Source of the DNA: a virus
Taxonomy: Duplodnaviria > Caudoviricetes
Virus record (IMG/VR): IMGVR_UViG_3300020112_000918
Span: 1 to 64,000 of that record
Reading direction: 5' to 3' (one strand)
DNA length: 64,000 nt
Translations under genes and position numbers: made by a program
Notes under the pieces: generated by a model
Told to the model about the DNA's origin: nothing
What the model saw: the letters and a program-made list of their open reading frames with translations, nothing else
Database searches by the model: none
Shown: piece after piece, positions 2,578-53,416 of the stretch
Position numbering within the stretch: the stretch's first letter is position 1
How the letters are laid out: every line of letters starts with the position of its first letter

Positions 2578-3546
2578 ATGAGGATTTTAATCTCGCACAG
2601 AGATCTTGACGGACTAGGAGTCATTGTTCTACGAGACTACTTTAACTTGCCTTTTGATGCAGTTTATTCCTGGGACTACGGATTTATCGAAATTCCAGAA
2701 TGTAAAAAGATTATTGACGCTGCCGACGAAATTATTATGGCAGACCTTTCCATTCCGGAAGAAAGTTATGATGAACTTATTAAAGCCGGAAAGCACGTTG
2801 AAATCTATGATCACCACGATACAGCTAAATGGCTCGACACAAAAGAAGGCAGTGTCCACGATGAAGAACGCTGCGGAACAAAAATCTTCTTTGAAGAATA
2901 CGTGCTTCCACGTGTAGGACGATTTAAGCCGATTGTAAAACAGTTTGTAAACTTAGTAGATGTTTATGACCGTTGGGTTCTTGACTCTCCTTTGCGTAAG
3001 GAATCAGAAAACCTTCAGAGAGTCTGGACAGCTTACGCAAACTGGAACTGTCCGGACAACATTATGCAGCATGACCGATTTATTATGCAGATGTGCCGAA
3101 AGTTTGACAGTATGACATCTTTTGCTTGGAACGTCACAGAGCAGTCTTACATTGATACAGCAATTCAGAAAGAAGAAAACTCTTATCAACAAGCGTTAAA
3201 CGTTATTCAAGACCGAGTAGACAATCAGGGAAGAACTTTCGGTATCTGGAAAGCGTGGGGTAGAATTTCTATTACAGCGTCTCGCATTCTTAGAGAAACA
3301 GACCGTTATGATTACCTTATCTGTCTTCAGGATTCTCCTGACAACTGGGGAAAAGTTTCTGTAAGATGTCTTGAAGAAAAGTTTGACGTAACTCAACTTG
3401 CTTCCGTAGGAGGACATAAAGCTGCGGGTGGAACAACTCTTTCTGCAGAAGATGCGACAGCTTTGTGGGAAAGTCCTTTGTGCTTTAAGTACGGGGCTGA
3501 CTGGAAAGAGGGCGAAAGTCCTATTGAACCTTGTAAATCATTTTAA
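2578..3546 (+). CDS. DHH/DHHA1 family phosphoesterase (NrnB-like)
   Basis: Motifs HRDLDG, ADLS, YDHH, SVR, GGHKAAGG. Confidence 0.85.
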   Translation: MRILISHRDLDGLGVIVLRDYFNLPFDAVYSWDYGFIEIPECKKIIDAADEIIMADLSIPEESYDELIKAGKHVEIYDHHDTAKWLDTKEGSVHDEERCGTKIFFEEYVLPRVGRFKPIVKQFVNLVDVYDRWVLDSPLRKESENLQRVWTAYANWNCPDNIMQHDRFIMQMCRKFDSMTSFAWNVTEQSYIDTAIQKEENSYQQALNVIQDRVDNQGRTFGIWKAWGRISITASRILRETDRYDYLICLQDSPDNWGKVSVRCLEEKFDVTQLASVGGHKAAGGTTLSAEDATALWESPLCFKYGADWKEGESPIEPCKSF

Positions 3547-33395: not shown

Positions 33396-34298
33396 ATGAG
33401 CGTGTATCACGGATCACATAGAATAGCTGGATCTAATAAAAACGTTATTCGAGACAGTTTAACTCGTCAGGATACTACTTGGTCTTCTGCCAAAATTGCT
33501 GAAGAAATTCAAAATGCTAAAACATATGCATCCTACGCAGCTATGCTTGGAGAAAACTTTACTAACGGGGTTTTAACAGAACGCAACTTAGTAAATGTTT
33601 TAGGAGCTACTAGTGTTGCGGATGCTTTTGCTAAGCTGCAGGCAAAAACTTCTGTGGGAGATTTTACAAACTTAGGATTGGGAGACTATATTGATATTCC
33701 TTCTATCACTTTTGACGGTCAGACTTTGACTCATAATCCTTCTTATGAAAATCTTCGAGTTCAGATAATTGCGTTTGACTACTTTAAAAACTACTATAAT
33801 ACTACTCATCATGCAGTAATGCAGTTTAAGCATTGTCCTTTTAAAAAGGAAATTAACTCTGCAAACTCTAACGTAGGTGGCTATCCTGCTATGCCTATAG
33901 CAGGTTACTTGAGTACTACTTTTGGAGCAGGACTTGAAGCAGCTATAGGAATTAACTGTTTGTCTATTAAGCAGTTCTTCCAGAAAGCAGCTACTGCTTG
34001 GTCGAACTCTACAGGATACAAAGTATTTTTACCTACAGAAAATCAGCTGATTGGACACAAAGGTTCTTCTACAGTAGCTACAAATTTTGTTTCCTATGAA
34101 CTAGGTCAGTTCCCTTACTACACAATTAATCCTAAGGGTCTTATGAAGAACTCTAATGGAGTACTTCACTACTATTGGACAGCTTCTCCGTTGTTTGCTG
34201 TCTCGTATCGCTTTGCTTACGTGGGCGACAGTGGTCGCGTGTACGACGGCAGTGCTAATGATGACGTTATCGGTGTTGCTCCAGTTTTCTGTATCTAG
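33396..34298 (+). CDS. DGR target protein (CLec-fold/DUF6273-like receptor-binding protein)
   Basis: C-terminal YYWTASP...FAYV...GVAPVFCI encoded by the VR; N-terminal TTWSSAKI tail-fibre motif. Confidence 0.85.
   Translation: MSVYHGSHRIAGSNKNVIRDSLTRQDTTWSSAKIAEEIQNAKTYASYAAMLGENFTNGVLTERNLVNVLGATSVADAFAKLQAKTSVGDFTNLGLGDYIDIPSITFDGQTLTHNPSYENLRVQIIAFDYFKNYYNTTHHAVMQFKHCPFKKEINSANSNVGGYPAMPIAGYLSTTFGAGLEAAIGINCLSIKQFFQKAATAWSNSTGYKVFLPTENQLIGHKGSSTVATNFVSYELGQFPYYTINPKGLMKNSNGVLHYYWTASPLFAVSYRFAYVGDSGRVYDGSANDDVIGVAPVFCI
34189..34284 (+). repeat. DGR variable repeat (VR)
   Basis: 96-bp ungapped match to the TR; all 18 mismatches are at TR adenines. Confidence 0.95.
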
Positions 34299-34317
34299 TA
34301 TCCAAAATCTTTAATCT

Positions 34318-34337
34318 GGGCTGCATACCTGCAGCCC
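34318..34337 (+). promoter_or_regulatory. DGR target-recognition hairpin
   Basis: GGGCTGCA-TACC-TGCAGCCC perfect 8-bp stem just downstream of VR/IMH. Confidence 0.8.
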
Positions 34338-34362
34338 TTGTAACACAGGTTGAACGAGGAAT

Positions 34363-34815
34363 ATGAGCGTACCAGTAAGAAAAAGAAATTTATCTAGCCT
34401 TGAGTTCTATAATACAGCAGTTACAATCTACAAGGACATTGTGTCTATCTTAGACAAACTGCCGAGAAAATTGGTAGATTCAACCAGTCACGAAGTAGAT
34501 AGAACTTACTTAATAGATTTCTATCAGAAAGCGTTTCTGAAAACTTATGAAGATATGATGCTGAATATTGATTTAGCAAATGAGATTTTCATAAGTGATA
34601 AAACTGCAGCCCAGTTTAGAAATAGAAGATTGAGTTACCAGGATACAGCTATCGCTATGTGTACTCATTTAGAAACTCTGGTAGAATTGCTTACAATGAA
34701 TTTTCCTAAAATCGTAGGAGAATTAGGGGTACTGTCTCAGAATCTGGAATTTGAGTTGTCTTTACTAAAAGGATGGAAAGAATACACTAAAAAGAAAAGA
34801 AAGGTGCTTGACTAA
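34363..34815 (+). CDS. avd: DGR accessory variability determinant (Avd-like four-helix bundle)
   Basis: MSVPVRKRNLSSLEF...ANEIF...RRLSYQ..AI...LLKGWK; lies between VR and TR. Confidence 0.8.
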   Translation: MSVPVRKRNLSSLEFYNTAVTIYKDIVSILDKLPRKLVDSTSHEVDRTYLIDFYQKAFLKTYEDMMLNIDLANEIFISDKTAAQFRNRRLSYQDTAIAMCTHLETLVELLTMNFPKIVGELGVLSQNLEFELSLLKGWKEYTKKKRKVLD

Positions 34816-34825
34816 AAATTATCGT

Positions 34826-34921
34826 CGTTGTTTGCTGACTCGAATAACTTTGCTAACGTGAACAACAATGGTAACGTGAACAACAACAATGCTAATAATG
34901 ACATTATCGGTGTTGCTCCAG
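34826..34921 (+). repeat. DGR template repeat (TR)
   Basis: AAC/AAT-rich intergenic copy of the VR. Confidence 0.95.
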
Positions 34922-35194
34922 ATTTAGATAAATATTTGATATCCCAATCTAGAGATCTTAAGTTGTTACACTTCAACTACAAAAAGTGTTGGGATTTTTA
35001 AATTTATTTAAAGGAGTCAAGAGTCCTGCTAGAAATAGCAAATCTTCGGTTTTGACATAAGAAAGTGGACGCTGCTTGCATGGTAGAAGCGTAAGCAAAC
35101 TTCTATTTCATACTTTCAAAATTATGCAGAGTGTAACTTAATTGCTAAAATCCTTCCTCTAGAAAGGATACTCTGTGCAAAACCTTTTTATTTT

Positions 35195-36286
35195 ATGACT
35201 TCTGAAGATCGACGAGAATTAAGATACCAGCGAAGAAAAGCTAAAAGAATTAAAGACCAACCAGATTTTTCTGAACTTTTAAAACCAGAAAATTTATACA
35301 ATTCCTACAAGCTATGCAGAAAAGGAACTTCTTGGAAAGCAGCTGTGCAACGCTATGGAAAACACTGTATACGAAATATTTTTGCTTCTATTGAAAAGCT
35401 AAAGAAAGGAGAACCAATTACAGAACCTTTCAATCTGTTTGAAGTTCAAGAGCGAGGACGTATCAGAGTAGTTATGAGCGTTCGTATAAAAGAAAGAGTA
35501 GTTCAGAAAGCCTTGCATGACTATATACTATTTCCTATTCTAAAACCTACATTAATTCCTGACTCGGGAGCTTGTATAAAAGGAAAAGGAATTTCTTTTA
35601 CGAGAAAACGACTTAAAGAGCATTTGCGCAGATTTTATAGGAAGACTGGAAATAATGAAGGCTACGTACTTTGTGTAGACTACTCGAATTACTTTGGCTC
35701 TATAAGGCATGATGTCTTGTTAAAGTTTTTATCCAAAAAGATTCGAGATGAACAGGTATTAAAGCTAGTAAAAGAAATTTTAGACAATTATAAAAAAATC
35801 GGCTTAGGACTAGGTAGTCAAATTTCTCAGCTATGTGCTTTATTTTATTTAAGTTCAGTAGATCACTTTGTGAAAGAAAAGTTGCGAGTAAAATATTATG
35901 GTCGTTATATGGATGACTGCTACTTAATAAGTGACTCAAAAGAGGAACTTAAGTATTGGCTTAAGGAAATTAGAAAGTTTAGTGAATCCGTTCTAGGACT
36001 AACTATAAGTTCTAGAAAAACTACTATTCAGAAATTAACAAATTTTAAGTTCATTAAGGGACACTACTGCTTATCTCTTACTGGAAAAATTAAAGTTTTT
36101 CCGGATAGGAAAACATTTTTAAGATTTAAACACAAATTCGTTAAAATGTTGAAAATGAAGTGTTCCGAAGAAATTTTGCTTCCTGTAGTGCAGAGCTGGA
36201 AAGGTCATTTAAAATATTTTAATTCTTGGAAAGAGAAGCAAGCAATGTTTAAGCTCTTAGGAACCTATTTAATTAAATCTAGCTAA
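35195..36286 (+). CDS. DGR reverse transcriptase 1
   Basis: ERVVQK, ACIKGKG, DYSNYFGSI, GLGLGSQISQ, YGRYMDD. Confidence 0.93.
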   Translation: MTSEDRRELRYQRRKAKRIKDQPDFSELLKPENLYNSYKLCRKGTSWKAAVQRYGKHCIRNIFASIEKLKKGEPITEPFNLFEVQERGRIRVVMSVRIKERVVQKALHDYILFPILKPTLIPDSGACIKGKGISFTRKRLKEHLRRFYRKTGNNEGYVLCVDYSNYFGSIRHDVLLKFLSKKIRDEQVLKLVKEILDNYKKIGLGLGSQISQLCALFYLSSVDHFVKEKLRVKYYGRYMDDCYLISDSKEELKYWLKEIRKFSESVLGLTISSRKTTIQKLTNFKFIKGHYCLSLTGKIKVFPDRKTFLRFKHKFVKMLKMKCSEEILLPVVQSWKGHLKYFNSWKEKQAMFKLLGTYLIKSS

Positions 36287-37944: not shown

Positions 37945-37960
37945 ATTTGCCTATTTGTTT

Positions 37961-40900
37961 ATGGCAAATAATTTAACTGATGGCATGCCTGAGGGCTTGA
38001 CCTTTAAATCTGAAGAACACAAACAAGATCTCACTTACAAAGCTACAGAAGAAGCATTGAGACAATTTTTAAAGATTTCTTCTCAGCTCGGAACTCATAA
38101 TAAAGACCTTCAAGAAGAGATTAAAACTCTTGTCGGAGATCAACAGAAACTGTACAAAAGATTCGATGAGGAACAGGCTCAACGCAGATTAGATGCAAAG
38201 CTGCTTCGTGAAAAGGGTGCTTCCGACGAAGAGATTATTGCCTACTTGTCTAAAAGACAGGAAACTTACGAAAAAGACACAAAGGCTTTGTTTGACTCAT
38301 TTGGAGATCTTCACAGAACTCTTGAAGGCTGGATTGAAGAAGATGAAAACCTTTCTGGTGGAGACAGAGTCCTTTTAAGAAAACAGCTTGAGACTTTCCA
38401 AAAGTCTTACGACCTGGATGAGCAGCTCAAGGCTGAAGCCGAAAGAAACGAAAAGAAACGAAACTCAATCCTCGAAAACATAGCAGAAAGTACTAAGGGA
38501 ACTTGGAAAGAAGCTCTTGAAAGTGGTAAATCTGAAAGAAAAGACCTGTTCGGTTCTTTTGCTTCTTCTCTGCTCGGTCCTCTTCGTGTTATTGCAGACC
38601 CTCTGACCAAGGTTGCCACAGGTAAGACAACTAGAGAAATCGCAGGAGACATTTTCGAGAAATGGACTTCAAAAGAGGACAAAGAAGATGAAGATAAGGC
38701 TGCAGAAAGAGACCTTGAACTCGAGACAGCTCTTTCATCGGCTCAACCGCCTTTAATTTCTTCTGTAGACCAGATAGCTAATCTTATCGAGAGTGACTCT
38801 CCTGAAGGACTTCTATCTCCAGAAGATATGAGAACTACGTCAACTGAAGAACTTCCTGTGTCTGCTTCTGTAAACAACGAAGGAATTCTGGAAAGAACAA
38901 CTCCTGTAGAAAACGACCTTTTACGTAAGGGTGGAATTGTCGGAGCAGCTGCTGTCTTCTTAGGAAAAGAAATTCGTAAGCTGGGTGAAGGAATTGAAGA
39001 CATCGACGTAGATGGAGATGATGAGGGATTCCTCGACAAAATTTCTGGAGGTAAGTTCTCAAAGACTCTTGCCAAACTCGCTCCTACTCTTGCTTCAGCT
39101 GCAGGAGTTGCTGCCGTTGCTGCAGTTCCTATTGCTATGCTCGTAGGTGGAGCTAAACTTCAGGAAAGAGATACTGAAGATGCTAAAAAGTATGCTGAAA
39201 AAGGCGAATACGGTCGAGCAGTAGAAACTGCTTGGCTTGGAGATAGAGAAAGACTCACTGAAGAAAATGCCAATGCAGAACTCGGAAGAGCAACTGGTAA
39301 AACAGCTCTGCTTGCAGGAGGAGCTGCAGGTGTTACAGCCTTAGCTGCAGGAGGAGCTGCTGCCGGAATGTCCGCAGGAGCTGCAGCTGCTGCAGGAGGT
39401 GCAGGACTCTTAGGTACGGGGCTTGCTGCTGCGGGAGCAACTGCAGGAGCTGTATTCCCTCCAGTTCTCATAGCTGCTGCGATTGCTGCAGCTGCAACAG
39501 TTGTAGCTAAGGGAGTTCAGGAAGCATATGAACTCGGATGGGATAAAAACCAAGCCGAAATTCAGAAAAACTTATACGATGTAATCTACTCAGAAGACTC
39601 TTCTGTTTGGGAGAAAGTTAAGGCTTCTGTCAGTTCAGACTGGAAAGAGTTTACAGGAACTATTGCTGGAGGAATCCGTGGAGTTACTGAAGAACTTGAG
39701 GGAGACGCAGCTATTGAATGGCAGAGAGGAATTGAGTATCTTGAAAAGACAGCTGCTGAAGGTAACGCAGAAAATGCTCGTCTTCTGACTATGATTCAGA
39801 GCGAAGAGTTTAAGTCTCTTTCTAAGAAAGACCAGGAAATGATGCTTAAATCAGAAGGACTTTTTGATGAGTATGAAACAATGCTCGATGAAGCTCAGAA
39901 CTCTTTCGGTGAAAGTATGCTTAACGGCTTACGAGCTACAGGGGACTTCTTTATCGGAGCTGTAAATACTAAGATGGAAGCCTATAACGGTAGAAAAGGA
40001 GCAGCAATAGATGCAAAACTTCTCAAAGAAATGGACAAAATTACGGGTGAAGATGTTGAACGCCTTAAAAATTCTACAGCGTATGCTGAAGCTCTTTCAC
40101 AGGGTAAAAATAAGAAGCAAGCAATGGAAGCAGCGTATCTCGAAGAAAAGCACAAAGAAAATGCAGCCCTCGGAATCCAAAAAGAAAACGGAGTCGCAGT
40201 AGGCTACAACGACTACGCTGTTACTTACTTCCAGAAAAAGAAATCTGATGAAGACTATCGTCAGACTCACGAATACGCTCAAGAAAAAGCTAAGCTCATG
40301 CAGAAAGGTTACTCTTCAGAGGAAGCAGATTTAAAGGCTATTGAAGAGTACAACGAAATGTATGAACAGGCTCTAACTTGGCGACTTAAACAGACTAAGG
40401 ACTATCGTGACCACTATAAAAAATGTCTCAAAGAAGGAAAGTCTATGGCTCAGGCTGAAAGAGAAGCCCTCCAGGTAGCCCGTGAAAACAAATACAACAC
40501 GATGACCTATACTGAGATCGTTAAAGAAAAGTTCTCAGAAATGGGTAAGGCTATTAAAGAGACATTTACAAAAGTCGGAGATAAGATCAAAGACGTGTTC
40601 GGAGATGTAAAAGAAAAGATTGCTGACGGGTTCAACGCTTTTAAAGAATCTGAATTCGGTCAGGCTATCTCAGACTTTGTTACAGGAATCTGGACAAAGG
40701 TTACTGAATGGTTCGGTAAGATAGGTGACTGGTTCTCAAGTAAGTGGGACTCAGTGGTTGGAGGTCTGACAGATGCTAAGGACTGGGTTGTAGACAAAGC
40801 CACAGCTGCGGGTTCTTGGATAAGTGATACAGCTTCATCTGCTTGGTCAGGAATTACAGACTTCCTCTCAATTGATGACGGTATCGTCACAAAAGACGGA

Positions 40901-41146
40901 AAGGTTATTCAGCTTTCTCCAGATGACAACGTTTATGCTACTAAAAATATGCCAACCGTTGTGGGAGATGCAGACGCACAAAGAGCTATGCCTTCTATTC
41001 CTGCTCCACAGCCTGAGTTTACAGATAAGAACATTATTGCAGCTATTCAGGTTCTTACAGAAGTTCTAAAGGGCAAGAATATGTCTCCTGAGATTAATAT
41101 TCCGGACAATTCGACTGTAGCTTTTGATCAGTTCAGATCTGCTTAA
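37961..41146 (+). CDS. tail tape measure protein
   Basis: About 1060 aa, helical, Ala/Gly-rich hydrophobic core, periodic W/F repeats near the C-terminus; ATG 4 nt after CCTATTT. Confidence 0.8.
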   Translation: MANNLTDGMPEGLTFKSEEHKQDLTYKATEEALRQFLKISSQLGTHNKDLQEEIKTLVGDQQKLYKRFDEEQAQRRLDAKLLREKGASDEEIIAYLSKRQETYEKDTKALFDSFGDLHRTLEGWIEEDENLSGGDRVLLRKQLETFQKSYDLDEQLKAEAERNEKKRNSILENIAESTKGTWKEALESGKSERKDLFGSFASSLLGPLRVIADPLTKVATGKTTREIAGDIFEKWTSKEDKEDEDKAAERDLELETALSSAQPPLISSVDQIANLIESDSPEGLLSPEDMRTTSTEELPVSASVNNEGILERTTPVENDLLRKGGIVGAAAVFLGKEIRKLGEGIEDIDVDGDDEGFLDKISGGKFSKTLAKLAPTLASAAGVAAVAAVPIAMLVGGAKLQERDTEDAKKYAEKGEYGRAVETAWLGDRERLTEENANAELGRATGKTALLAGGAAGVTALAAGGAAAGMSAGAAAAAGGAGLLGTGLAAAGATAGAVFPPVLIAAAIAAAATVVAKGVQEAYELGWDKNQAEIQKNLYDVIYSEDSSVWEKVKASVSSDWKEFTGTIAGGIRGVTEELEGDAAIEWQRGIEYLEKTAAEGNAENARLLTMIQSEEFKSLSKKDQEMMLKSEGLFDEYETMLDEAQNSFGESMLNGLRATGDFFIGAVNTKMEAYNGRKGAAIDAKLLKEMDKITGEDVERLKNSTAYAEALSQGKNKKQAMEAAYLEEKHKENAALGIQKENGVAVGYNDYAVTYFQKKKSDEDYRQTHEYAQEKAKLMQKGYSSEEADLKAIEEYNEMYEQALTWRLKQTKDYRDHYKKCLKEGKSMAQAEREALQVARENKYNTMTYTEIVKEKFSEMGKAIKETFTKVGDKIKDVFGDVKEKIADGFNAFKESEFGQAISDFVTGIWTKVTEWFGKIGDWFSSKWDSVVGGLTDAKDWVVDKATAAGSWISDTASSAWSGITDFLSIDDGIVTKDGKVIQLSPDDNVYATKNMPTVVGDADAQRAMPSIPAPQPEFTDKNIIAAIQVLTEVLKGKNMSPEINIPDNSTVAFDQFRSA

Positions 41147-41185
41147 AAGGTCGCCGTAGAAAAACTGTTCGGAATTATACTGAAT

Positions 41186-41650
41186 GAGCATTAAAAACAA
41201 GCCTTGATTTTACGCAGAAGAGATCTGACACTTGGGTCAAGGCTGCTTAACCTCTTCAACAAGGGGTAACTTCTACAAAGAAAAACACTTACTAGTATTT
41301 CTGGCTCGGGACGACAAAGCGTGATGCTACTCCGTAGGGGAATACGCTAAGGCGAGACTGTGGTCTAGCGTTGTAATCGTGGGAAGCAGTTTATGACCCT
41401 GACGTGTAGGTGGAGGAGTGGTGAGGGGAATGAGTACGCCACGTAGAAGCGATCTGAACTTATCGATAAAGGTACCACGGGAAAAACGGTTCAGCGATTT
41501 TTCCTGCTCTGATGATGGCTCCGTAGCTTGAATCATGGGCAACCCTGTCTTTAGGAGACCACCTAACGCCAGAAGCAGTTAGGGACTTTAAGCCACTCGG
41601 CTAAGTAGCGTTTCCTAAGGTCGGGTCTGCTCTTCCGAATCCACCACTCT
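41186..41650 (+). ncRNA. putative large structured non-coding RNA (family unassigned)
   Basis: Locally GC-rich, no credible ORF, class-2 promoter at 41171, many local and long-range helices (see findings); ends approximate. Confidence 0.65.
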
Positions 41651-41701
41651 TGAGATTTCTTTCTTATCTAATTGAGTTCCTATTTTTGAGTGGAGGATTA
41701 A

Positions 41702-42355
41702 ATGTGGAAAAATCTAAGATTACTTTACCTACTTGGCTCTTTATTCTTGTTCTCGTTCTTGCCCTTGCAGGAATTGCATTCTCAGTCTACTCCGAGTATA
41801 ACTTTTACAAATTTAAACATGATGCAGCCACTCGGTATTCCGAACTTGAACAGCAGTATAAATTGGAATCTGCCTCTCTCGCAGCAGAACTGGACTCAAT
41901 TCGACTTCACGCTGATGAGCTTGAACGACTTATCCAGGGCGTTCAATCTGGAGTATCAGAACTCTCAGAACTTAATAGACAATCTACAGAGTCAGCTAAA
42001 CTTCTCGAATCTTCAAATTCTGTCATTGGAGTTATCTTTGGAGAGTACGCAAGACGAACTGCAAAGGTTACAGCAGAGCTTGAACAACTCACTCGAAACT
42101 CAACAAAATATGGACTCCCTAGCCGAACAGATGACAACGGAAACTAATGTTCTGAAAGAAGAAAATAAACTTTATAAGCGTAAGATTAAGAAACTCTGGA
42201 TATCTATTGGAGTTTCTTCTGGAGGAGCAGCTATAGGAAGCCCTCTAATTGTTGAAGGAATTCGAACAGACAATCAAGTGATGACTTGGTCTGGAATAGG
42301 AGTTCTTGGAATAACAGCTATTTTTGATATAGTTTACAACATCTTCATAGAATAA
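41702..42355 (+). CDS. exported coiled-coil protein with C-terminal hydrophobic segments (spanin-like)
   Basis: Signal-peptide-like N-terminus, Q/N/L heptads, two Gly-rich hydrophobic segments; precedes the endolysin. Confidence 0.55.
   Translation: MWKNLRLLYLLGSLFLFSFLPLQELHSQSTPSITFTNLNMMQPLGIPNLNSSINWNLPLSQQNWTQFDFTLMSLNDLSRAFNLEYQNSQNLIDNLQSQLNFSNLQILSLELSLESTQDELQRLQQSLNNSLETQQNMDSLAEQMTTETNVLKEENKLYKRKIKKLWISIGVSSGGAAIGSPLIVEGIRTDNQVMTWSGIGVLGITAIFDIVYNIFIE
41704..42147 (+). CDS. inner-membrane spanin-like protein (overprinted)
   Basis: GTG start, one N-terminal TM helix and a coiled coil; nested in another frame of 41702-42355. Confidence 0.55.
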   Translation: MEKSKITLPTWLFILVLVLALAGIAFSVYSEYNFYKFKHDAATRYSELEQQYKLESASLAAELDSIRLHADELERLIQGVQSGVSELSELNRQSTESAKLLESSNSVIGVIFGEYARRTAKVTAELEQLTRNSTKYGLPSRTDDNGN

Positions 42356-42366
42356 GGAGAAAAGAA

Positions 42367-42774
42367 ATGGACACAAAACAGTTTGTAGACAAGTATCTTG
42401 GAACTAAGGTTGACGCAGACGGATTTTATGGAGCACAGTGCGTAGACCTTTTCCGTCAGTTCAATAGAGAAGTTTTCGGCTTTCCTCACACAGGAGGAGT
42501 AGACGGAGCTAAAGATTTGTATGAACTTTACGGTAAACTTCCAGAAGAAAAGAAATACTACGAGCAGATTCGTAAAGAAGGAACTATTCCTCTCGAAGGA
42601 GATATCGTAGTCTTCGGAAAAACTACTAAAAACCAATTCGGTCACGTAGCTATTGTTTTATGGGCTTCCAGAAAGACTATGGTTGTTCTTGAACAGGATG
42701 GTCTGAAACAGGATGGAGCAAAAATCGTAGCTCGTGACTATGACAATGTTCTGGGATTCTTACGTAGGAGATAA
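42367..42774 (+). CDS. CHAP-domain endolysin
   Basis: DGFYGAQCVDL, GDIVVF, FGHVAIV, VLEQD. Confidence 0.9.
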   Translation: MDTKQFVDKYLGTKVDADGFYGAQCVDLFRQFNREVFGFPHTGGVDGAKDLYELYGKLPEEKKYYEQIRKEGTIPLEGDIVVFGKTTKNQFGHVAIVLWASRKTMVVLEQDGLKQDGAKIVARDYDNVLGFLRRR

Positions 42775-42776
42775 AC

Positions 42777-43382
42777 TTGCCTAAAAAGATTCAGAACAAC
42801 TGGACGTTGCGTAAGCTGATCCAGAACACGTATGCCCATCAGTATTCTCGAACTCGCTTTGCCTATAAGCTAAGAGATATGGTAAAGGTCATACGTGTTG
42901 AACAAGTCTCTGTTTACAATGGAAAAGACCCTGGAAAAGCCCGAACAAAATACGTCATCACGACTCGTTCAACTCCTCAGTACTATCCTTACTACACTAA
43001 GAAAGATGCTTGGGGAAGAACTAGACAACGTCAGACACGCTACCATCACGAATACGCAGTTACTATTCAGATGGATACTCTTTCTCTAGACGTTCCGTTT
43101 AAGGGCAGAGTAGGTTCAATAGGAGCTTGGGATTTTTCAAAAAGAGGTTCCCCTATTCGTTTACCTAACGGAAAAGTCAAAGAAGGAACTAACTACCAGA
43201 AAGGAATTAACGCAGACTTCTGGTTTAGATGTTCTTGGGTGTGGCAGCAGGAAGGAATTCTTTTCGGTAAGAACTATGCAAAAGGTGCTCCTGTAAAGGT
43301 TAATCCTAACAGAATTGTTTTTGCTCCAAAGCACTTCTTAGCCGTAGTTCAGTACCTTATGGAAAGGGGAATTTTACACTAA
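42777..43382 (+). CDS. basic hypothetical protein (degenerate SWIM-like motif)
   Basis: ADFWFR...NP...PKHFLAV; TTG start uncertain. Confidence 0.45.
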   Translation: MPKKIQNNWTLRKLIQNTYAHQYSRTRFAYKLRDMVKVIRVEQVSVYNGKDPGKARTKYVITTRSTPQYYPYYTKKDAWGRTRQRQTRYHHEYAVTIQMDTLSLDVPFKGRVGSIGAWDFSKRGSPIRLPNGKVKEGTNYQKGINADFWFRCSWVWQQEGILFGKNYAKGAPVKVNPNRIVFAPKHFLAVVQYLMERGILH

Positions 43383-47727: not shown

Positions 47728-49287
47728 ATGTCTGAAAAAATAGTTGAATGTTCTATTTGTGGAAAAATCCATAAAGTTTGCTCTTATTATATTTCAGAGA
47801 GAACTTTTACTCCTCATGAAGTTACTTGTCCTGTATGCGGAAAAATCTTTATTATAAAGTGGCAAGCAGCTCAAGCTCGTCAAAAAGAAAATGTAGATGA
47901 GTCTTACTGTGCAAAATGTCTTCAAAAACATACTGCTTTAAGACTTTACGGAGTAGAATACCCTATGCGTTCTCCTAAGATTGTCGCAAAAGCTAAGGCA
48001 ACTTGTTTAAAGAAGTATGGAACTTCTTCTCCTCTAAATAAAGAGTGCTCCGTTAGAATAGAACATGAAAAAGAATTTAAAGAAGGTTCTATAAAGGGAG
48101 GACAAGGAAAAGAATCTCCTTTTAAAGACCCTCAAATAAGAGAAAAAGCCCGTAAAGTCATTAAAGAAAAATACGGGGTAGACAATGTAATGAAATCCGA
48201 CGAAATTAAGTCTCGATTTCAGAAAACGATGATAGAAAAATATGGTTCTCCTTGGGCTATGCAGTCAGAGCAGCTTAAACAACGAATGAGTGATTCTTGC
48301 TTGAAAAATAATGGAGCACCTTGGCCAGCTCAAAGTCCAGAAATTCGAAAACAAATGTCTCAGACCTGTTTCGAAAAATATGGAACTATTCATCCTAATA
48401 TTGGATCTCAGTCTAAAGAAGAAAAAGAAATTTTTAACTATATATCATCTTTAGGGTTTAAACCGATTTCAGGATTTGTTGACTGGGGAACGGGAACTCA
48501 AGAAATAGATATCTTTATTCCTGAACTAAAAGTAGGATTTGAATATAACGGTCTTTATTTTCATTCTACAGCCTGTAAAGTAAATCCTCTTTATCATCAT
48601 GAAAAATCTGTCAAGGCTTTAAACTCAGGGATTAAACTTTATCACTTATGGTCGAGAGAAGATCTTTCCTTGCTTAAAAGTGTTGTAGCTTCTAAACTAG
48701 GAAAGTGTAAGAAACTTTATGCTCGAAATCTTACTGTAAAGTCTGTTTCTACACTAGAAGCTAATAGTTTTTATAATAAAAATCATATTCAAGGCTCTGT
48801 TGGAGTAAGCTCATTTCATTATGGACTTTTTGAAGGAGATACTTTAATATCTTGTATGTCTTTTAGAACCTTTCACCCAGGAACAGTAGAGCTTTCTAGA
48901 TTTGCAACTCAGCAATTTACTCAAGTTATAGGAGGATTTAGTAAGCTCTGGTCTTATTTTGAAAGACATAATACAAAGTACTTGCATGCAGTATCTTTTG
49001 CCATGAGAGATATTTGTCCTGTTTGGCAGGAAACTGTTTACGCTAAAACGGGATGGAATAAAACTTTAGAGTACTCTAATCAATTATTCTACACAGACTG
49101 TACTCGACTTCTTAATAGACAAAACTTTATGAAACAAAAATTAAAAGACTTGTGGGAATGGAAATCGGAATATAATTCAATGACCGAAGTTCAAATCTGT
49201 CAAGACCATGGAATTTATGCTATTTATAATTCGGGCTGCTGGAAATTTGAAAAAGACTTAGTCCCTCTAAATCGGAAGCCTATTTAA
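47728..49287 (+). CDS. free-standing homing endonuclease (zinc ribbon, KYG repeats, PD-(D/E)xK/Hef-like domain)
   Basis: CxxC motifs, repeated EKYG.., EIDIFIPELKVGFEYNGLYFHS, YARNL, NHIQG, ELSRFA, IYNSG. Confidence 0.78.
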   Translation: MSEKIVECSICGKIHKVCSYYISERTFTPHEVTCPVCGKIFIIKWQAAQARQKENVDESYCAKCLQKHTALRLYGVEYPMRSPKIVAKAKATCLKKYGTSSPLNKECSVRIEHEKEFKEGSIKGGQGKESPFKDPQIREKARKVIKEKYGVDNVMKSDEIKSRFQKTMIEKYGSPWAMQSEQLKQRMSDSCLKNNGAPWPAQSPEIRKQMSQTCFEKYGTIHPNIGSQSKEEKEIFNYISSLGFKPISGFVDWGTGTQEIDIFIPELKVGFEYNGLYFHSTACKVNPLYHHEKSVKALNSGIKLYHLWSREDLSLLKSVVASKLGKCKKLYARNLTVKSVSTLEANSFYNKNHIQGSVGVSSFHYGLFEGDTLISCMSFRTFHPGTVELSRFATQQFTQVIGGFSKLWSYFERHNTKYLHAVSFAMRDICPVWQETVYAKTGWNKTLEYSNQLFYTDCTRLLNRQNFMKQKLKDLWEWKSEYNSMTEVQICQDHGIYAIYNSGCWKFEKDLVPLNRKPI

Positions 49288-53372: not shown

Positions 53373-53416
53373 AGCTACCTCCTATATATTATAATTCCGA
53401 GGAGGTAGAAAAAGGT

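Follow-up and report, generated by a model that had tools for sequence, protein, structure and literature searches.

This locus raises the question of what is held in a gap of 555 nt (41147-41701) between the stop codon of a tape-measure ORF, at 41146, and the ATG of the next ORF, at 41702. The window (the whole 64,000-nt stretch analysed) is part of a 133,795-nt IMG/VR virus record, in which the element found in the gap is single-copy. A sequence-only reading of the window had taken the gap for a large structured phage RNA of no known family, lying behind a promoter and between the tape-measure and lysis genes.

The gap, its relatives and the promoter motif

The gap has a GC content of 0.47-0.52, compared to 0.385-0.40 in the flanks, which agrees with the earlier remark that it is GC-richer than its surroundings. 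On the plus strand, all ORFs of the gap (41147-41701) are of 37 aa or less, and the longest ORFs (71 aa on the minus strand and 37 aa on the plus strand) do not keep their position or frame across the lineages of homologues described below. Since no ORF is common to the lineages, the gap is non-coding. The upstream neighbour is indeed a tape-measure gene; the lysis genes expected downstream are not there. In PHROG searches, the genes that follow the 217-aa ORF corresponded to a CHAP-type lysin and baseplate wedge proteins, and these neighbours define the setting as a T4-like tail/baseplate module with a tail lysin, without a lysis cassette. The 217-aa protein itself appears, from reading of its sequence, to have a hydrophobic N-terminus and a coiled-coil-like middle.

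Two related contigs were found in IMG/VR. No similar DNA was found in the isolated phages of INPHARED, and baseplate protein identity to the closest isolated phages was 26% or less. Searches with the 217-aa protein yielded 89 homologous clusters (65-99% identity) from pig-gut and other metagenome assemblies. At 14 further loci, an uncalled gap of ~551-560 nt was present at the same position in all but one, L022, where the gap is 423 nt. Altogether, 13 distinct copies of the element were available, and they form three lineages: A comprises the window and L012; B comprises L010 and L014, with 83% identity to A; and C comprises nine sequences, with ~66% identity to A and B and 89-99% identity to one another. 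In the lineage B contigs L014 (2665-3642) and L015 (2665-3504), an extra ORF of ~325 aa, missing from the other loci, separates the 217-aa gene from the CHAP gene; this ORF may be a mobile insertion.

The promoter proposed in the sequence-only reading corresponds to a recurrent motif, GGAATTATA, of which there are 12 copies in the 64-kb window versus 0.45 expected; the copy at 41171 is invariant among the homologues. About 10 of the 11 other copies, as read off the listing, are in the correct orientation and no more than ~90 nt upstream of a ribosome-binding site (RBS) and start codon; the copy at 41171 is 520 nt from the next start codon, and one copy (44105, minus strand) is inside the baseplate gene. 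Sites of the form GGAATTATA(A/T) are located at 2514, 6271, 12766, 19803, 20500, 22975, 30359, and 41171, and, on the minus strand, at 53398, 55537, and 58467. To judge from its sequence and distribution, GGAATTATA(A/T) is probably the late promoter of the phage. We infer that the 41171 copy is active and that transcription starts at about 41185-41190. A consensus scan revealed neither a terminator-like hairpin in 40500-42500 nor a second promoter-like site in the stretch from the fold to the ATG at 41702, and no processing signal that would separate the fold from the next gene was found. With no terminator before 41702, the downstream mRNA must begin with this RNA, at least as first transcribed.

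Covariation and architecture of the RNA

Because the full-length RNAalifold fold was messy, domain-wise folding was combined with an enumeration of helices that can pair in every sequence. The resulting 98-pair model was scored on 12 sequences (1176 cells) and compared to controls in which the 3' partners were slid by 1-3 columns. Canonical pairing was found in 98.6% of the cells, versus 32-45% with slid partners, and 31 pairs had changes on both sides, versus 1-6 in the slid controls; the model was built from the same sequences, which represent three deep lineages, that were used for the scoring. None of 500 shuffles matched the observed values on four of five measures (cells paired, both counts of double changes, and the covariation score). 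On both strands, we also enumerated helices that were 5 bp or longer and had two or more compensated pairs; the null was obtained by shuffling the alignment column order, which keeps the phylogenetic pattern of each column. Eight such helices were found on the plus strand and three on the minus strand, while the shuffled alignments (n = 200) contained 0.89 on average and four at most. The homologue covariation check proposed in the sequence-only reading thus came out in favour of the RNA.

On the tree of the 12 sequences, there are at least 66 pair-state changes, and outside S2 a single cell is non-canonical. The rate of change is 0.50 per column in paired and unpaired columns alike; given that pairing is retained, the stems evolve freely yet stay paired. 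RNAalifold found 9 of 37 pairs in the inner core to be compensated. Many G.U pairs occur in the compensated helices, which makes the compensation specific for the plus over the minus strand. Independent compensations within lineage C or in single sequences are seen in H3, LR1, and S1: S1 was compensated in two sub-clades, a G-C pair at 41295/41345 of H3 became A-U in L019, and two neighbouring H3 pairs were compensated independently in L022. Folding of the single sequence gave z = -1.70 on the plus strand and -0.65 on the minus strand, which on its own is weak evidence for structure. With compensation above phylogeny-keeping controls and strand specificity both observed, as is expected of a structured RNA gene, we regard the folded RNA as very probably real. 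Its features are collected in Table 1.

Table 1. Coordinates of the RNA, its structural elements, and the neighbouring genes and signals in the window.
Feature	Position	Strand	Remarks
Tape-measure protein gene	37955..41146	+	1063 aa; upstream neighbour; PHROG tape-measure families
Late-promoter-like motif GGAATTATA	41171..41179	+	invariant in 13/13 homologues
Structured RNA, overall	41186..41632	+	about 445 nt; 98-pair model and covariation
H1, 11-bp 5' hairpin	41200-10/41234-44	+	conserved 23-nt loop; 6/11 pairs compensated; 100% paired
Core domain	41270..41449	+	180 nt; H2 encloses H4, which encloses H3 and H5
H2, closes core	41270-76/41443-49	+	7 bp; 4 compensated pairs
H4, inside H2	41286-92/41406-12	+	7 bp; 2 compensated
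H3, inside H4	41295-302/41338-45	+	8 bp; inner P3a and P3b; 3 compensated
H5, four-part hairpin, inside H4	41350-52/41398-400, 41355-61/41386-92, 41364-66/41382-84, 41369-70/41378-79	+	
LR1 pseudoknot	41346-48/41607-09	+	crosses H2 and H4; joins core to 3' domain
K1 hairpin	41450-53/41462-65	+	1 compensated; 100% paired
K2 hairpin	41478-86/41498-506	+	2 compensated; 100% paired
K1/K2 loop-loop helix	CUGAAC 41454-59/GUUCAG 41489-94	+	6 bp; A-U to G-C in lineage C; 100% paired
Linker	41507..41536	+	30 nt; invariant block GAUGAnGGCUCC; conserved in alignments
3' domain	41537..41632	+	96 nt; composite stem around S1, S2, and the 3' strand of LR1
3'-domain closing stem	41537-41/41628-32, 41544-47/41622-25, 41550-59/41610-19	+	covaries
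S1 hairpin	41562-67/41578-83	+	6 bp; loop GCCAGAAGCA with invariant CCAGAAG; 2 compensated
S2, variable hairpin	41585-88/41603-06	+	
RBS-hiding hairpin	AAUCCACCACUC 41638-49/GAGUGGAGGAUU 41688-99	+	GGAGG at 41692-96; 12 nt, 92% complementary
Downstream gene	41702..42355	+	217-aa protein without family match; followed by CHAP domain protein and baseplate genes

The predicted RNA begins with a short, A/U-rich 5' end at ~41186, followed by the H1 hairpin and the core. H2, which closes the core, exists in three versions (CUUCUAC/GUAGAAG, CCUCUAC/GUAGGGG, and CGGAUUC/GAAUCCG). The long-range helix LR1 (41345-49/41606-10 in the helix enumeration) has pair states GC/GU/AU and CG/UA/UG within lineage C, and every cell is paired. 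As LR1 and the helices that it crosses, H2 and H4, both covary, the RNA contains a true pseudoknot. For the linker, reading of the alignments revealed no consistent helix. In the 3'-domain closing stem, the 10-bp part (41550-59/41610-19) has four compensated pairs, and the outer part has G.U, A-U, or U-A at 41538/41631 and a C-G to U-A replacement at 41544/41625. A helix 41355-59/41624-28 was also considered and rejected, since its compensating change is explained by the stem at 41544/41625, which stacks on the 3'-domain stem. The K1/K2 kiss may form within or between molecules; both are considered in view of the kissing-loop precedent of ROOL (see below). Separately, the last codons of the tape-measure gene (41126-41139) are 93% complementary over 14 nt to 41451-41464, which includes K1 and its loop. 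Reading of the alignments showed that this complementarity is absent from lineage C, and it is therefore probably due to chance.

About half of the helices that the sequence-only reading had listed by eye hold, namely the 5' hairpin, two small hairpins, and the kissing loops, and the others had to be replaced. Thus, AGCCTTGA/TCAAGGCT is part of the 11-bp H1, with six compensated pairs in 12 homologues; the CGAT/ATCG hairpin is K1 (one compensated pair) and the GGAAAAA/TTTTTCC hairpin is K2 (two); and the CTGAAC/GTTCAG kissing loops form the 6-bp helix in which A-U was replaced by G-C in lineage C. The proposed long-range pseudoknot GAGTGGTG/CACCACTC is paired in 58% of the cells, and a different pseudoknot, LR1, was found instead; CACCACTC pairs better with the RBS region (12 nt, 92% complementary). 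The supposed GG-GCAA-CC tetraloop, paired in 54% of the cells, is the 5' strand of the 3'-domain closing stem. TAGGTGG/CCACCTA is paired in 87% of the cells, contains A.C mismatches in 4 of 12 sequences, and competes with two covarying helices; the covariation that it seems to show is accounted for by S1, in which 41563 and 41582 covary in 12 of 12 sequences. TTAGGGA/TTCCTAA (89% of cells paired) gave way to a 10-bp helix with four compensated pairs formed by TTTAGGAGAC at 41550 and GTTTCCTAAG at 41610. The remaining helix, TTCTGG/CCAGAA, is of 6 bp, invariant, and with zero covariation, and is partly inside the covarying H3. In L022, which lacks CCAGAA, TTCTGG is changed to TTTCGG and H3 is still perfectly paired, a situation compatible with a second constraint on the TTCTGG segment in full-length copies. 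The overall call was right even though half of the helix list was wrong.

Known RNA families and the accessory nature of the insertion

The region was compared to Rfam 15, a search that had been proposed together with the RNA. At gathering scores, the only matches in the whole genome were an RT-2 RNA at 35000-35205 and a tmRNA at ~72.3 kb, both unrelated to the element. At E <= 10, searches with the region from the three lineages gave scattered chance matches that were different in each lineage. ARAGORN found zero genes in 40000-43000, and the 64-kb window is free of tRNA genes. The real tmRNA of the phage, located elsewhere, was detected with both tools and served as a positive control. As far as the models can see, membership of ROOL, GOLLD, OLE, raiA, group I and II introns, RNase P, tmRNA, riboswitches, and transposon-guide RNAs is ruled out, and judged against these models the RNA is uncatalogued. 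Together with the covariation across three lineages, these results uphold the claim of a large structured phage RNA without a known family, including its lack of resemblance to tRNA, tmRNA, RNase P, or an intron. A group I or II intron was rejected on three grounds: there is no RF00028 or group II match at E <= 10, the tape-measure stop is normal, and the next gene has its own RBS. A riboswitch or T-box was rejected because no aptamer model matched and no conserved alternative pairing was found, although RBS occlusion itself is present.

The RT-2 match belongs to a complete diversity-generating retroelement at 33396-36286 of the window. Its variable repeat (34189-34288) is at the end of a 300-aa ORF, and its template repeat (34826-34925) is 81% identical to the variable repeat; an Avd-sized ORF (34363-34815), the associated RT-2 RNA (35000-35205; 74 bits in Rfam), and a reverse-transcriptase-sized ORF (35195-36286) complete the element. 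The tmRNA is located at about 72320-72695 of the full record G000, on the minus strand (L115 8320-8695), with an Rfam score of 88.5 bits and an ARAGORN-predicted tag DNDYSMKAAA, and a tRNA-Leu is found at about 71292-71371 of G000; the two genes may give a clue to the host. A perfect 25-nt direct repeat (47635-47659/49274-49298) brackets the ORF at 47728-49287.

A profile search with the 217-aa protein revealed a distant homologue, P0212, on contig L026 (E = 2e-26). The gene order of this contig is the same: tape measure, a 212-aa protein, CHAP, proteins of 200, 85, and 127 aa, and baseplate. The C-termini of the tape-measure proteins of the window and L026 are colinear (46% identity, with the alignment reaching the last residue). 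A 6-nt junction in L026 replaces the 555-nt gap, and the tape-measure stop codon overlaps the next RBS. Neither the GGAATTATA motif nor a covariance-model match was found in the 6.6 kb of the L026 contig that was covered.

The locus L022 (1578-2000) has lost ~130 nt, comprising the whole 3' domain and the spacer, and its tape-measure ORF call extends 130 nt beyond those of the other loci. In the part that is retained, ~19 of 22 private differences are at positions invariant in all other copies; among them are changes in H1 and at the end of H2 that were left uncompensated. A copy that has lost its 3' domain and accumulated private changes at invariant positions implies that the RNA can be lost. 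As the element is absent (L026) or truncated (L022) in phages that were still assembled, it is an accessory insertion. It shares with phage morons a promoter motif of its own, with inferred activity, a location between two adjacent genes, and absence from a relative whose gene order is the same.

A wider search for the element covered IMG/VR, JGI metagenomes, and 185,579 genomes, each representing one prokaryote species, and used 18- to 19-mers from the invariant blocks as well as a pattern with gaps. Besides chance matches, mostly in GC-rich genomes, it recovered only the two relatives already known. A covariance model of 41284-41414 gave weak matches (17.8 bits) to a Collinsella MAG and a human-gut contig, which were dismissed as chance, since these loci had been chosen beforehand for containing the seed 19-mer and have no helix H3. 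Searches of IMG/VR with the baseplate protein and with P0212 yielded zero new relatives. As far as these searches show, the RNA family occurs only in a single clade of uncultured phages of roughly 131-136 kb, and many of these phages come from pig gut.

The downstream gene and the role of the RNA

The RBS of the 217-aa gene can be occluded by an upstream segment (AAUCC...), which pairs with it in the RBS-hiding hairpin. Compared to shuffles, occlusion was significant in lineage A (p ~0.013) and lineage C (p ~0.02-0.03), and weak in lineage B (p = 0.22). The spacer of roughly 55 nt between the fold and the RBS varies in both sequence and length and contains indels. Complementarity between the core and the anti-RBS segment was no better than in shuffles (p = 0.13-0.45), and a candidate anti-anti-RBS switch, in which GAGTGGTG would compete for CACCACTC, was not above shuffles and was rejected. 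With a variable spacer and core/anti-RBS pairing at chance level, no conserved switch from fold to translation is seen, and we place a function in trans above one in cis, narrowly.

An additional feature of this region concerns lineage C and, weakly, lineage B. There, an inverted copy of the RBS region is found upstream of the promoter; in L011 of lineage C, the sequence after the tape-measure stop (2625-2635) is an inverted copy of 3166-3176 (11 nt, 91%, 530 nt apart). The window's lineage does not have it. To judge from these sequences, read-through transcripts of lineage C, unlike promoter-initiated ones, could hide the RBS via the inverted copy.

In the account that we prefer, and to which we give an even chance, the element is a late-expressed, dispensable, trans-acting folded RNA. 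It would be an RNA gene of an uncatalogued family, ~445 nt long and pseudoknotted, with a 3' domain tied to the core by LR1 and inserted like a moron at the precise boundary of the tape-measure gene and its downstream neighbour. Its own late promoter would cause the RNA to be made late, as the first part of the tail/baseplate transcript. The folded RNA itself would be the product, a stable particle that acts in trans and possibly self-associates through complementary loops, as ROOL and GOLLD do, and it would confer a host-dependent, non-essential advantage rather than control the downstream gene as a switch. Besides the variable spacer and the non-significant core/anti-RBS pairing, a trans product is favoured by loops such as CCAGAAG, which are invariant while the stems vary, and by the finding that a covarying kissing loop of ROOL is intermolecular (PMC12286853).

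A cis-acting leader, that is, a sensor or control domain for translation, stability, or read-through of the tail/baseplate genes that would act via the 41638-41699 hairpin, is a possible but less probable role. Such a role would suit an RNA that is an obligatory 5' UTR, with no terminator or second promoter before 41702, and an RBS that is occluded in lineages A and C (shuffle p ~0.01-0.03). It would also suit the arrangement in L026, where the gene is translationally coupled to the tape measure, so that the insertion had to bring new expression signals. Yet a pseudoknotted RNA of 445 nt far exceeds known leaders and matches no riboswitch or T-box model; the spacer from the fold to the occluding hairpin is variable, with indels; core/anti-RBS complementarity is at chance level; occlusion in lineage B is weak; and L022 has kept an occluding hairpin of its own without the 3' domain. 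T-box leaders and the cobalamin riboswitch, with its kissing loop, resemble the element in 5' UTR location, kissing loops, and an occluded RBS downstream; the RNA of the window is two to three times larger than these leaders, has no Rfam match, and shows no conserved alternative pairing between fold and expression platform.

It is improbable that the element is a catalytic or mobile-element RNA. It would then be an unrecognised ribozyme that excises itself from the late mRNA, or would belong to a mobile element as its RNA component or its remnant. This reading could explain why the insertion point is exactly intergenic, why the fold is pseudoknotted and contains blocks that are unpaired yet invariant, as in ribozymes, and why lineages B and C have an inverted RBS-region copy right after the tape-measure stop. 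However, no group I, group II, RNase P, small-ribozyme, or transposon-guide RNA model matched at E <= 10, no nuclease, transposase, or reverse-transcriptase gene is adjacent, the element is single-copy in the genome, and its position outside any gene means that it is no intron. Finally, a reading without any RNA gene is very unlikely, be it a DNA-level element (for packaging or recombination, or an origin) or filler in decay that looks structured owing to shared ancestry: while there are only three deep lineages, the single-sequence fold is marginally above shuffles, and the element is dispensable, compensation is strand-specific with many G.U pairs (eight helices versus three), includes independent events inside lineage C, keeps 98.6% pairing at 66% sequence identity, and exceeds the mean of 0.89 helices in phylogeny-keeping column shuffles.

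The closest known counterparts of the element are ROOL (RF03087) and GOLLD (RF01998), large ornate RNAs of phages and prophages, which are likewise phage-encoded, hundreds of nucleotides long, rich in helices, pseudoknots, and kissing loops, non-essential, and without a known protein partner. At ~445 nt, the RNA of the window is shorter than ROOL and GOLLD (about 600-800 nt or more). These adjoin tRNA islands, whereas the RNA described here is ~30 kb from the one tRNA and the tmRNA of its phage, and, unlike them, it is inside a tail operon, is without its own terminator, and is restricted to one phage clade. ROOL and GOLLD are RNA-only homo-oligomeric cages. The expression of GOLLD rises in phage-induced lysis (PMC12286853), which may be likened to the location of our RNA behind a late promoter. 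In ROOL, a kissing loop that covariation had at first suggested to be a tertiary contact proved to be intermolecular (PMC12286853). The pRNA of phi29 is also an RNA from a phage structural module with complementary loops, which pair between molecules to form a ring. However, pRNA is about 120-174 nt long, early, essential, and encoded at the genome end of small podoviruses; the RNA of the window matches no pRNA model and would be dispensable, late, and part of a T4-like myovirus tail module. Phage morons resemble the element in precise insertion between late genes, an own promoter, and absence from a syntenic relative; in contrast to protein-gene morons, the cargo is a structured RNA and the unit has no closing terminator.

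A bolder reading, possible but less probable than not, would make the element the first of a new class of large phage RNAs, an RNA machine or assembly made late from within a tail operon. Were this so, it might be a particle that self-associates through K1 and K2, a ribozyme, or an RNA cofactor of tail/baseplate assembly or host takeover. The weakness of the case is its narrow distribution in one clade of uncultured pig-gut phages; the comparative support, with crossing helices, kissing loops, and invariant loops, is unusually clean for an RNA of this size. The promoter, the L022 deletion variant, and the insert-free relative L026 are ready-made genetic controls. Few classes of bacterial and phage RNAs several hundred nucleotides long have been catalogued, and each of them (the ribosome, RNase P, group I and II introns, and the ROOL and GOLLD cages) has repaid study.
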